DNA of 46,111 nt from Patescibacteria group bacterium (GCA_038065095.1 JBBTRR010000007.1:1-46111); one strand, 5' to 3'; positions 4,626 through 8,286 are shown, counted from the stretch's first letter. The notes: generated by a model from the letters alone, not told the origin. Program-made: numbers and translations.

Positions 4626-4832
4626 ATGGCATCTGTATTAACAAAAGATCAAAAGAATAGTGATTTTGTGCTTGTGCCCCGCAAGGAGTATAGGGAACTT
4701 TTAGATTTAAAAAAGATTTTAAAAAGTAAACTAGGCGAGATTAAAAATACCGATACCGCTATTAAGATTTATCTTAAAGAAAAAAAACAAAAAAAATTAA
4801 AAGTTCTAAGATCATTAGCTGACTTAAATTAA
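4626..4832 (+). CDS. Putative antitoxin
   Basis: Small ORF (FVLVPRKEY motif) directly upstream of a RelE-family toxin. Confidence 0.6.
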   Translation: MASVLTKDQKNSDFVLVPRKEYRELLDLKKILKSKLGEIKNTDTAIKIYLKEKKQKKLKVLRSLADLN

Positions 4833-4838
4833 GAGAGT

Positions 4839-5096
4839 ATGGTTATTAGAACCACCTCTAATTTTAGAAGATATTACAAAAGACTACCGAAATTTGTAAA
4901 AGAAAAAGCGTTAGAAAAAGAAAATATTTTTATAAAAAACCCTTTCGATTCCCGATTGGATACTCATAAACTTCACGGCAAGTATAAAAATTATTGGGCG
5001 TTTACCATTGTAGGACAGTACAGAATTATGTTTGCTTTTAGCAGTAAAAGCATTGTTGATTTTGTTAACATTGGTACACATGAAATATATAAATAA
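4839..5096 (+). CDS. RelE/YafQ-family type II toxin
   Basis: F.R.YK.L...NPFDSRLDTHKLHG..W.F...YRI.F...IGTHEIY. Confidence 0.85.
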   Translation: MVIRTTSNFRRYYKRLPKFVKEKALEKENIFIKNPFDSRLDTHKLHGKYKNYWAFTIVGQYRIMFAFSSKSIVDFVNIGTHEIYK

Positions 5097-5182: not shown

Positions 5183-5407
5183 ATGTCTACACAGGCACTA
5201 GCCCAAAAACTTAATAAGGAATTAGGGAAAATTAAAGAGGAAATGAATGGAATTAAAGAATATCTTTTTTCACCGCTCAAAGATTTAGAGGGAGAATACG
5301 TAAACTCTTTTGTAAAAAAAATATTGACTCGAGCCAGCCAGCGAGGTTCTTTCCGCCGTTTTAATAACAAAGAATCTTTTCTAAAACATGTCCGTTTTGG
5401 CAAATGA
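5183..5407 (+). CDS. Putative antitoxin
   Basis: 74-aa ORF (DLEGEY..SFVKK) overlapping a RelE-like toxin. Confidence 0.6.
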   Translation: MSTQALAQKLNKELGKIKEEMNGIKEYLFSPLKDLEGEYVNSFVKKILTRASQRGSFRRFNNKESFLKHVRFGK

Positions 5408-5681
5408 AATTATTTATGATAGAGATTTTATAAAAGATGTTCGCCGTTTGCCTGCCGAGTCGCAAGACAAACTAGCCGATCTCCTCTTAATTTTAAAAAA
5501 AAATCCATTTGATTCATTGCTTCATACTAAGCCCTTGAGCGCTCCGCTTCAGGGGTTGTTTTCTTTCCGTATAACCAGAGATTATAGAGTTGGATTTAAG
5601 TTCCAATCCACTCGCGTAATTCGGTTGTTGGTGGCCGAGAGGCGAGATAAAATATACAAACGTCTTAGTCGAAAAGTTTAA
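5388..5681 (+). CDS. RelE/ParE-family type II toxin
   Basis: F.KD.RRLP...NPFDSLLHTKPL...FSFRITRDYRV.F...RDKIY. Confidence 0.85.
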   Translation: MSVLANEIIYDRDFIKDVRRLPAESQDKLADLLLILKKNPFDSLLHTKPLSAPLQGLFSFRITRDYRVGFKFQSTRVIRLLVAERRDKIYKRLSRKV

Positions 5682-5799: not shown

Positions 5800-6417
5800 A
5801 TGGCCCGCAAAGACGTAGCCGCAATCGTTAGTGGTGCTGGGTGGACCGCAGATTTCATGGGTCAGTTGATCAATGGTCTTTTGGCCAAAGGTCACGCGCC
5901 CGAGGAAATCCATTCACTGGTAACCGCGAAACAGCGGCCGGCGATGGATAAGATAGTAGAAGAAGTTTCCAGTTTCCTTCGGGAACTGGGCAACATCTTC
6001 TCTCTCACTCTCAACTACTATCTCCCCTTGGCCGAAGCCATCGCGATAGGGAAGTATGACGGAGTAAACAGCGACATCACCGAGGAACACTTCCCCAAAA
6101 CTCGCACCGGCACTACAGAGCTGGAGGAGGCTCAACTGGTTCATTTCAATCGTCCGATAGATTCGGACGATGCTTTGAAGGAACTGGACAAGATGGGTCT
6201 TCGTCCCGGCGAACTCCCCGAGCTTCTAGCTTTTGGGGCCAAATACCCCGAAAAGCAGAAAGAGTTTCCCATCATCGCGCTCGGGTCTGTCTGGCGCCGC
6301 CGCGGCCTTCGCGACGTGCCCGTTCTCTGGAGCGATTCCGGTGGGCGCAACCTGCTTCTCCTCTGGTACGACAGCTGGTGGTTCGATAGCTATCGGTTCC
6401 TTGCCTTTCGCAAATAG
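5800..6417 (+). CDS. DGR target (variable) protein, probable C-type-lectin-like fold
   Basis: 3' end is the VR matching the TR; C-terminal ...YRFLAFRK. Confidence 0.9.
   Translation: MARKDVAAIVSGAGWTADFMGQLINGLLAKGHAPEEIHSLVTAKQRPAMDKIVEEVSSFLRELGNIFSLTLNYYLPLAEAIAIGKYDGVNSDITEEHFPKTRTGTTELEEAQLVHFNRPIDSDDALKELDKMGLRPGELPELLAFGAKYPEKQKEFPIIALGSVWRRRGLRDVPVLWSDSGGRNLLLLWYDSWWFDSYRFLAFRK
6290..6413 (+). repeat. DGR variable repeat (VR)
   Basis: Aligns with 6747-6873; about 25 substitutions, all opposite TR adenines, plus one 3-nt gap. Confidence 0.95.
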
Positions 6418-6456
6418 TTTTAACCCTTGGAACCTTGGTTCCTTTGATCCTTAACC

Positions 6457-6492
6457 CCCGCAGAGCAACGTTCTGCGGGTTTTTCTTTTTTT
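6457..6492 (+). terminator. GC hairpin after VR (DGR homing cruciform and/or intrinsic terminator)
   Basis: CCCGCAGAGC-AAC-GTTCTGCGGG followed by a T tract, 40 nt after the target stop. Confidence 0.75.
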
Positions 6493-6746: not shown

Positions 6747-6873
6747 TCTGGCAGAACCGCAACGGCAATCGCAACGTGCCCGAACTCTGGAGCAATTCCA
6801 GTAAGCGCAACCTGAATCTCAACTGGTACGACAACAGATGGAACGATAACTATCGGTTCCTTGCCTTTCACAA
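6747..6873 (+). repeat. DGR template repeat (TR)
   Basis: AAC/AAT-rich copy of the VR in intergenic DNA. Confidence 0.95.
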
Positions 6874-6893
6874 TTTGTTTTGTTCTCCCCGAT

Positions 6894-7220
6894 TTATTTG
6901 AGGGGAGTTTCTTTTTGTATTCCTTTTACCCAACCGCCAAGCATTTTCCCGATTTCTTCTAATTTACCCGATAGGGTGATATATTTTTTGTTGTCTAATA
7001 CTTTTAATTCCCACGAGATTTGCAGAAGAAACTTAAGCAGATCTAACTTTATTCCAGATTTTTTTAGGTACGGTATTTTTTGTTCTTTGCTTAAGTAACT
7101 GGCAACGAAAAGTAGTTCGATCGTATCTAAAAAATATTGATCAATTTTGCCACCAAGTGTATATTTGTGTTTTTTGGTAAAATGATTTTTGAATTCATCC
7201 CATAACCTATATATTTCCAC
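6894..7220 (-). CDS. avd: Avd-like accessory protein (four-helix bundle); true 5' end probably upstream
   Basis: F.KKHKYTLGGKI...IEL...LDLLKFLLQISWE..LDNKKY..LS..LEEIGKMLGGW; lies between TR and RT. Confidence 0.85.
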   Translation of the reverse strand: MEIYRLWDEFKNHFTKKHKYTLGGKIDQYFLDTIELLFVASYLSKEQKIPYLKKSGIKLDLLKFLLQISWELKVLDNKKYITLSGKLEEIGKMLGGWVKGIQKETPLK

Positions 7221-7246
7221 AAATTTTTGAATTATTGATGGGGTCT

Positions 7247-7266
7247 TGTGTGTGTGTGTGTGTGTG
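7247..7266. repeat. (TG)10/(CA)10 microsatellite between avd and RT
   Basis: 20-bp perfect dinucleotide run, the only one of its kind seen in the window. Confidence 0.95.
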
Positions 7267-7293
7267 AATAGGATTGCTTGTTGGCTTATTATT

Positions 7294-8286
7294 ATGAAAA
7301 CTCAATTGATCCATAGTTTTGAAGACATTATTAGCCCTGATAACTTGTTATTAGCTTGGCAGGAGTTTATCAAAGGCAAGAGAAAAAGAAAAGATGTACA
7401 AGAATTTCAGATGCAGTTAATGGATAACATATTTTCTTTGCATTCCGACTTAGTCAGTTTTACATACCGACACGGCAGTTACCAAGCTTTTAACATCTCC
7501 GATCCTAAACCAAGAAACATACATAAGGCCACAGTTCGGGATAGATTATTGCATCACGCTATATACCTAATTCTGTATCCTTTCTTTGATAAAACTTTTA
7601 TAGCCGATTCTTTTTCTTGCCGAAAAGAAAAAGGCACGCATAAAGCCTTAAAAAGGTTCAAATATTTTTCTTACAAAGTTAGTCAAAATAACACCAAAAC
7701 ATGCTGGGTGTTAAAGTGCGACATTAAAAAATTCTTTGCCAGTATTAACCACGAGGTTTTATTAAACATACTGGTTGAATACATACCAGACAAAAATATT
7801 ATCTGGATTTTAAAAGAGGTTGTATCAAGTTTTAAAATTGGTTTGCCACTGGGCAATTTAACCTCTCAACTCTTAGTGAATATCTATATGAACGAATTTG
7901 ATAGATTTGTTAAGCATAAATTAAAAATCAAGCATTATATTAGATACGCTGATGATTTTGTAGTTTTGTCCGAGAATAAAGAATGGTTAGAAAAACAGAT
8001 TATTTTTATTAAAGAGTTTTTAAATAAAGAATTAAAGCTATCTCTACATCCCGACAAAGTATTTATTAAAACTCTAGTTTCAGGTGTGGATTTTTTGGGC
8101 TGGGTGCATTTCCACGATCACAGAGTTTTAAGGACTACAACCAAAAGAAGAATGATTAAAAGAATATATGAGAATCCAAAACCAGAAACGATAAATTCTT
8201 ATTTGGGTTTGCTAGAGTGGGGGAATACTCAAAAAATAAGAAATAAAATAATCATAAATCTTACTAATCTTACTAATCTTACTTAA
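7294..8286 (+). CDS. DGR reverse transcriptase
   Basis: PKPRNI..ATVRDRLLH, KCDIKKFF, GLPLGNLTSQ, RYADD, GVDFLG; start taken at MKTQ. Confidence 0.95.
   Translation: MKTQLIHSFEDIISPDNLLLAWQEFIKGKRKRKDVQEFQMQLMDNIFSLHSDLVSFTYRHGSYQAFNISDPKPRNIHKATVRDRLLHHAIYLILYPFFDKTFIADSFSCRKEKGTHKALKRFKYFSYKVSQNNTKTCWVLKCDIKKFFASINHEVLLNILVEYIPDKNIIWILKEVVSSFKIGLPLGNLTSQLLVNIYMNEFDRFVKHKLKIKHYIRYADDFVVLSENKEWLEKQIIFIKEFLNKELKLSLHPDKVFIKTLVSGVDFLGWVHFHDHRVLRTTTKRRMIKRIYENPKPETINSYLGLLEWGNTQKIRNKIIINLTNLTNLT

Follow-up and report, generated by a model that had tools for sequence, protein, structure and literature searches.

A slippage-prone CA tract between the predicted start and the body of avd as a candidate switch on a Patescibacteria diversity-generating retroelement

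In the diversity-generating retroelement (DGR) of Bordetella phage BPP-1, avd is co-oriented with the reverse transcriptase gene brt and has an ordinary start, and Avd is needed together with the reverse transcriptase (RT). Contingency loci with repeats in the 5' coding region include the poly-G/C genes of Campylobacter jejuni, Neisseria, and Helicobacter and the tetranucleotide genes of Haemophilus influenzae, while promoter-spacer phase variation is represented by the poly-C tract in the fim promoters of Bordetella pertussis and by the TA repeats between the divergent hifA and hifB genes of Haemophilus. Programmed frameshifting or transcript slippage is known from prfB, dnaX, and the transposases of insertion sequence (IS) elements. 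Here, we analyzed a DNA stretch of 46,111 nucleotides (nt) from an ultra-small groundwater bacterium of the Patescibacteria group (GCA_038065095.1, JBBTRR010000007.1:1-46111), hereafter the window, with positions counted from its first letter. The window carries a DGR in which a (CA)10 tract stands at a frame break between the predicted start and the body of avd. We propose, with a probability of roughly 0.65, that slipped-strand changes in the number of CA units switch the translation of full-length Avd on and off, and so mutagenic retrohoming.

The tract (7247 to 7266) is a perfect 10-unit dinucleotide repeat according to Tandem Repeats Finder, being TG on the plus strand and CA on the minus strand, where it is read as His-Thr repeats. 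Dinucleotide runs of at least 5 units occur only five times in the whole genome (794,273 bases in 14 contigs, 36% G+C), and the other four have exactly 5 units, so that the tract combines a slippage-prone length with a size exceptional for this genome (10 units versus a maximum of 5 elsewhere). On its downstream side in the avd sense lies the avd body (6894 to 7246, minus strand, with the stop codon at 6894 to 6896), which encodes the four-helix Avd domain (Pfam bAvd, PF22296, E = 4e-15) and begins directly after the tract with K-T-P-S-I-I-Q-K-F. The body contains the annotated GTG (7220 to 7218) that opens a 108-amino-acid (aa) open reading frame (ORF) ending at 6894. Upstream of this GTG the avd frame reads VFIIISQQAILFTHTHTHKTPSIIQKF (a stretch also given as ...THTHTHKTPSIIQKF) and is closed by an in-frame TGA at 7304 to 7302, with no ATG, GTG, or TTG in between. 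On the other side of the tract, the avd 5' segment (7267 to 7314, minus strand) comprises an ATG at 7314 to 7312 and 15 codons (MDQLSFHNNKPTSNPI); it is homologous to residues 1 to 15 of the Avd homologues P0002, P0042, and P0056 and lies 1 nt out of frame with the body. Translation from this ATG continues through the tract as HTHTHT and then as QDPINNSKICGNI to the TAG at 7209 to 7207, yielding an off-state peptide of 35 residues. Because (7314 - 7220) mod 3 equals 1, one surplus nucleotide separates ATG 7314 from the avd body; 8, 11, or 14 CA units put the two in frame, whereas 10 or 12 do not, and translation ends after 35 residues at 10 units and after 28 at 12. An earlier reading of this DNA made from the sequence alone (the sequence-only reading) had claimed that avd is out of frame with ATG 7314 at (CA)10, that the avd frame upstream of GTG 7220 has no canonical start before the TGA, and that ATG 7314 reads stop-free into the tract and would join avd at (CA)11 or (CA)8; coordinate arithmetic and translation bore out all three. 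If TGA were a sense codon, the avd frame would extend up to an ATG at 7328, but this possibility was rejected. TGA is a stop here: with table 11, open frames of at least 150 codons take up 82% of the genome as it is, and 107 of 637 such frames terminate in TGA.

To place the tract in context, DGR loci were gathered from the genomes of relatives, 80 from genome contigs and 80 from metagenome contigs. With the window duplicate (L021), four 100%-identical duplicates (L103, L126, L138, and L160), and an RT fragment (L018) left out, the final set comprised 160 loci with an adjacent divergent avd, including the window and the second DGR of its genome. A tract was defined as a G/C run of at least 7 bases, or a non-AT dinucleotide run of at least 5 units, at the junction. 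Such a slippery tract was found at the junction in 147 of the 160 related Patescibacteria DGRs, and its density there (6.7 per kb) was about 570 times the background of the flanks (6 in 509 kb, or 0.012 per kb). In the avd sense, 138 tracts are poly-C, four are CA (the window, L002, L118, and L131), three are CT, and two are GA. The poly-C tracts measure 7 bases in 3 loci, 8 in 21, 9 in 34, 10 in 48, 11 in 23, 12 in 4, 13 in 1, 14 in 3, and 17 in 1. In a FastTree phylogeny of the RTs, a single tree without a topology test, CA appears in three places, CT in two, and GA in two, and these loci as well as the tract-less ones are scattered among poly-C loci. At the protein level, 118 of 122 stored Avd homologues carry the Y..W anchor; 64 of these have long N-termini, with Pro runs in 31, His-Thr repeats in 15, Ser-Leu or Arg-Glu repeats in 1, and no repeat in 17, and the remaining 54 start at or after the helix. 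The long homologues with His-Thr repeats, together with the scattered CA loci, thus identify the CA version as a recurrent variant and indicate that natural on alleles exist. Comparison of Avd N-termini and of tract lengths among relatives agrees with the sequence-only reading, in that the tract is kept, its length ranges from 7 to 17, and it comes in four repeat types. Only four locus pairs are near-identical (at least 93% identity), and all four are 100% identical including the tract and probably represent the same data. In addition, in 17 of 87 tract-bearing loci of a first set, the RT frame runs open through the tract and offers no ATG, GTG, or TTG downstream of it; in these loci the tract seems, from the reading frames, to lie in the RT ORF too, as Gly codons.

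Comparison with these relatives shows the predicted start of avd to be ATG 7314, which falls within the RT gene of the other strand, rather than GTG 7220. The suggestion of the sequence-only reading that ATG 7314 is the true start, split from the body by the tract, is supported by five independent lines, namely, homologue alignment, coding signature, RT codon choice, tract-less relatives, and fold. The intact homologue P0002 (132 aa) begins MSQLSFHKDSSNNPIHTHTHTTPSIIQKFV...; its residues 1 to 25 match window positions 7314 to 7237 in one frame (E = 2e-8), and its residues 16 to 132 match positions 7262 to 6912 in a second frame (84% identity, E = 1e-76). Their overlap falls within the His-Thr repeat, and P0042 and P0056 align likewise. 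Moreover, a protein-coding signature sets in directly after the tract and is seen in the codons that precede the GTG. In 144 loci, the nine alignment columns right after the tract have the consensus L-P-x-I/L-L-Q-K-L-K, with a second-position entropy of 0.12 to 1.42 bits (below 0.9 in five columns) and a third-position entropy of 1.6 to 2.0 bits, as in the downstream gene; in the window, these columns correspond to codons upstream of the GTG.

The choice of codons in the RT gene points the same way. This gene (7294 to 8286, plus strand; 330 aa; Pfam RVT_1, E = 4e-25) starts 27 nt past the tract on the plus strand, with the N-terminal sequence MKTQL in common with L003 to L006 and L008, and overlaps the avd ORF head to head by 21 nt (7294 to 7314). 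The first seven codons of the avd 5' segment run antisense, and in codon register, to RT codons 7 to 1, so that ATG 7314 is the exact antisense of the RT codon His7 (CAT, 7312 to 7314). Among 68 loci with His at this position, the codon is CAT in 66 and CAC in 2 (CAT in 53 and CAC in 1 in the metagenome set), while 12 other conserved His positions in the same RTs have 555 CAT and 428 CAC (56% CAT). Likewise, Leu5 is encoded by TTA or CTA in 0 of 34 cases, versus 543 of 1,826 at other conserved Leu positions, and RT codons 1 to 6 of the 68 loci hold a single codon that reads as a stop in antisense, versus 4.9% of codons elsewhere in RT. The RT gene is therefore under constraint to preserve the antisense ATG together with the open frame behind it.

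Relatives without a tract provide a further comparison. The ATG is in frame in 9 of the 13 tract-less loci by script, or in 12 of 13 when L010, L011, and L017 are added by eye, leaving L176 as the only one out of frame by both script and eye. Computed with 9 of 13, the difference from the tract-bearing loci (35 of 136 in frame) gives a Fisher p of 0.002, which, like all p-values here, is rough, as the loci are related to one another. In L047, CCC CCG CCG CCG replaces the poly-C run, still encoding Pro-Pro-Pro-Pro with no homopolymer and with the ATG in frame; read in this way, L047 is a putative natural "locked on" allele. As for the fold, an AlphaFold2 model of P0002, built from a 40-sequence alignment, has a mean predicted local distance difference test (pLDDT) score of 84.9 and four helices (residues 24 to 40, 45 to 71, 74 to 100, and 106 to 131), while residues 1 to 19 fall below a pLDDT of 50. 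Helix 1 of the model starts at the residue matching the S of TPSIIQKF, and the equivalent of the GTG is V30, so that initiation at the GTG would be predicted to remove 6 of the 17 residues of helix 1. According to this model, the repeat encodes a disordered His-Thr linker. A PDB sequence search with the window Avd returned nothing significant (best E = 0.11), and the Pfam match stands. Taken together, these data place the repeat inside the predicted ORF, downstream of its start, where its length sets the frame.

If avd is read from ATG 7314, the state of each locus can be scored. Of the 147 loci with a tract, 136 offer a single upstream frame in which an ATG stays open into the tract, while nine offer two and two offer none. 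Among the 136, 35 have their ATG in frame, 66 have one surplus nucleotide, as in the window, and 35 have two (chi-square p = 0.0009), and the two off states differ in number (66 versus 35, binomial p = 0.003). The nine dinucleotide loci lean the same way, with one surplus nucleotide in five, none in three, and two in one. Poly-C length depends on which lengths are in frame (3 x 4 table, p = 0.0004), the mode lying one base above an in-frame length, and the modal length follows this rule in two of the three frame classes. This surplus of one state fits a recoding explanation, under which transcript slippage by RNA polymerase, or a +1 or -2 slip of the ribosome, restores the frame at the tract; some Avd would then come even from out-of-frame alleles, with tract length tuning the amount rather than acting as an on/off switch. 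Since tRNAs can re-pair perfectly after a slip on a homopolymer or dinucleotide repeat, such a slip is conceivable, and it would also account for a DGR that acted in the past (22 adenine-specific changes in its variable repeat), yet is out of frame in all 10 contigs of the species. However, programmed frameshift sites hold one offset, and here the offset is not fixed (35/66/35) and one conserved offset with a motif was not found. Tract-less relatives are mostly in frame and L047 is non-slippery, so a slip is unneeded for function; lengths from 7 to 17 and changing repeat types are typical of DNA-level instability; and the distances to the first stop in the off frames show no design, nor any pattern that would explain the one-surplus excess. 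We thus consider recoding unlikely as the principal explanation.

Two other explanations leave the frame aside. The tract could be a length-sensitive spacer or structure serving the divergent avd and RT genes, or the RT 5' leader, with the frame incidental. It sits between divergent genes and 27 nt ahead of the RT ATG, which would suit such a role, and the RT ATG follows the tract, which then lies in the RT leader, in 61 of 87 tract-bearing loci of the first set. Against this, the coding signature, the antisense ATG, the open frame, and the in-frame tract-less loci place the tract inside the avd ORF, and the tract length depends on the frame class, so that the frame matters to the tract, unlike in a non-coding spacer. 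A consensus scan of 7221 to 7293 on both strands, which covered only this promoter type, found no sigma-70-like site. We regard control through transcription or the leader alone as most improbable, while an additional effect of the tract on RT expression may exist. Alternatively, there may be no switch: translation of Avd may begin at GTG 7220 (or at ATA or ATT as a near-cognate codon), or the gene may be in decay, and the tract would be neutral or distorted by assembly. Gene callers indeed give the 108-aa GTG form in every assembly of the species and short N-termini in 54 of 118 homologues; one codon upstream of the equivalent position, L003 carries an ATG and L008 a GTG; and the tract length of the window disagrees with that of four other assemblies. 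A neutral repeat, though, would not be expected to persist at a single place in as many as 147 of 160 diverged loci, nor to be swapped for other repeat types, and it would leave the RT codons unconstrained, yet the ATG and the open frame are kept. A start at the GTG would, moreover, cut into helix 1 in codons under amino-acid constraint, and the avd body is intact (84% identical to P0002). The absence of any switch is thus very improbable in our judgment.

The proposed switch itself has to be weighed against what is seen in this population. Logan contigs from four public runs of four studies (X1, X2, X7, and X10) span the tract with no other differences from the window and with 4 extra letters. 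X10 confines these letters to 7152 to 7326, with gap rows dropped in the masked repeat at 7238 to 7276. The public-run contigs most likely carry 12 CA units, a number derived from coordinates and the mask and not from reading the letters; 12 units leave two surplus nucleotides and are also off, and the in-frame length of 11 falls between 10 and 12. The claim of the sequence-only reading that the element was assembled in the OFF state thus stands insofar as 10 units is off, while the length of 10 itself differs from that in the four contigs.

Several observations weigh against a phase-variable switch and temper the probability given above. The difference between 10 and 12 units could reflect heterogeneity or an assembly discrepancy of the window, as two of these runs may stem from the source sample itself, and the runs consist of assembled contigs only, so the lengths are per contig. 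No on allele of the window's species was found, the three members of its 90% protein cluster being all of the 108-aa GTG form on 10 contigs. A search of metagenome contigs for other alleles with exact-flank patterns gave 0 matches, in a collection from which records near the window's genome may be excluded. Among relatives, the asymmetry of the off states (66 versus 35) is not predicted by a simple two-way switch, the relatedness of the loci makes all p-values approximate, and at least one canonical start lies just after the tract in some loci (L003, L008, and L009), where a shorter Avd without the tract would be possible. Finally, the dependence of RT on Avd is taken by analogy from the Bordetella phage system. 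What speaks for phase variation is the frame architecture, the retention of the tract in 147 of 160 loci, and a length that differs between assemblies; the comparisons demonstrate the architecture as read from sequence and support, but do not prove, instability of the tract at the DNA level. From these, we infer the switching itself.

Under the proposed mechanism, the tract would act as a hypermutable simple repeat in a genome where MutS and MutL were not found. Slipped-strand mispairing at replication would add or remove CA units, and only alleles of 8, 11, or 14 units would join ATG 7314 to the Avd body, whereas at 10 or 12 units translation would end after 35 or 28 residues and no full-length Avd would be made. 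By analogy with the Bordetella phage DGR, mutagenic cDNA synthesis would be off without Avd and the variable repeat frozen, until a one-unit slip to 11 turned the system on in a subpopulation. The tract could thereby gate targeted hypermutation in a stochastic, heritable, and reversible way, and the window element would be one dinucleotide version of a device mostly built from poly-C in relatives. For the clade as a whole, we see odds slightly better than even for a second tier of evolvability, in which a hypermutable repeat in the avd start, shared in some loci with the RT start, stochastically gates hypermutation. Selection would then target slipperiness itself, since CA, CT, or GA repeats have taken the place of poly-C several times and poly-C is occasionally "locked on" by a synonymous interruption; the one-surplus excess may mean a leaky resting state via +1 or -2 slips, giving three expression levels per tract.

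The locus surrounding the tract is a Patescibacteria DGR with the layout target-TR-(avd)-RT. The target gene (5800 to 6417, plus strand; an ORF call of 205 aa with no Pfam family) ends in the variable repeat (VR; 6297 to 6421, plus strand), a 125-nt direct repeat shared with the template repeat (TR; 6757 to 6881, plus strand). TR and VR differ at 24 of their 125 positions, 22 of them at TR adenines, so that 22 of the 35 TR adenines are altered, and the remaining two mismatches fall on TR thymines 6874 and 6876; VR copies carried by contigs of X1 and X2 differ at TR adenines only. The DGR RT thus stands beside a TR/VR pair with differences on TR adenines, and avd is reversed between the TR end (6881) and the RT start (7294). 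Of 102 first-set loci, 95 share this reversed-avd layout, and five of the other seven are cut by a contig end. A reverse-oriented avd between TR and RT corresponds to architecture B3, TR-(avd)-RT, reported for 90% of the candidate phyla radiation (CPR) set of Wu et al. (2018; PMC5758913). Some further features of the element were noted. The RT ORF ends at its extreme 3' end in a perfect tandem repeat of three 9-nt units (AATCTTACT; 8257 to 8283), giving the tail NLTNLTNLT before the stop, and a 10-bp GC-rich hairpin followed by a T run lies at 6457 to 6479, 36 nt past the VR. In other DGRs a GC-rich inverted repeat follows the VR, and the hairpin could be either such a repeat or the terminator of the target gene. 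Directly upstream of the target are two pairs of adjacent or overlapping small ORFs (4626 to 5096 and 5183 to 5681) that have the appearance of toxin-antitoxin modules.

Of the two DGR junctions in the genome, one holds its sole long dinucleotide run and the other its longest G/C run. The second DGR (locus L022, G000 contig C1:92483-93764) carries G9 at 92816 to 92824, and this run lies in both head-to-head ORFs. An offset of 1 nt puts both its avd ATG (92846) and an RT-side ATG (92789) out of frame, and a length of 8 would restore both; as assembled, a TTG at 92814 is in frame with RT. No match to MutS (PF00488) or MutL (PF01119) was obtained in this genome, for which marker completeness is given as 100%, and elongation factor P (EF-P) is present.

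Uncontrolled adenine mutagenesis of the target should be costly for a 0.8-Mb genome. If the proposed switch operates, most cells would keep a fixed variable protein while a few diversify, which would amount to bet-hedging on mutability itself. Moreover, avd is annotated from an internal GTG or TTG (short forms in 54 of 118 homologues), so that surveys scoring DGRs as complete or active by annotation may misjudge most Patescibacteria elements. Groundwater time-series metagenomes already exist in which the tract length per read could be set against VR diversity. A full-text literature search found nothing linking DGRs or Patescibacteria with repeat-tract switching, although mention in supplements is possible, and the accessible text of Wu et al. 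(2018; PMC5758913) and of Roux et al. (2021; PMC8144416) contains no mention of a repeat tract, a frame break, or on/off control of avd.

Compared with the systems described above, the window element resembles the BPP-1 DGR (mtd-avd-TR-brt) in having a target with a 3' VR, adenine-specific differences from the TR, a four-helix Avd, and an RT, and differs from it in that avd is reversed relative to RT and carries a tract and a frame break. As in the fim and hifA/hifB systems, the repeat lies between divergent genes and its length could act on both; unlike in those systems, the tract is inside an ORF, the frame matters, and no promoter-like hexamers flank it. With prfB, dnaX, and IS transposase sites it shares a slippery run joining two frames of one protein and an over-represented one-surplus state, whereas the offset, run length, and repeat unit vary here and tract-less relatives are in frame. 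The closest likeness in build is to contingency loci, with a perfect slippage-prone repeat a few codons past the ATG, in a tolerant disordered stretch, whose length sets the frame; as in those loci, relatives differ in tract length and the majority of assembled alleles lie out of frame. Campylobacter and Helicobacter are not known to have mismatch repair genes, to which the failure to find MutS and MutL here may be likened. The differences from contingency loci are a 0.8-Mb Patescibacteria host, a CA unit (poly-C in most relatives), a predicted start codon inside the partner gene on the opposite strand, and switching that is inferred from sequence. Above all, the gene that would be gated belongs to neither the surface nor the restriction-modification genes, being instead a core component of a targeted hypermutation machine, so that one mutable device would control another.

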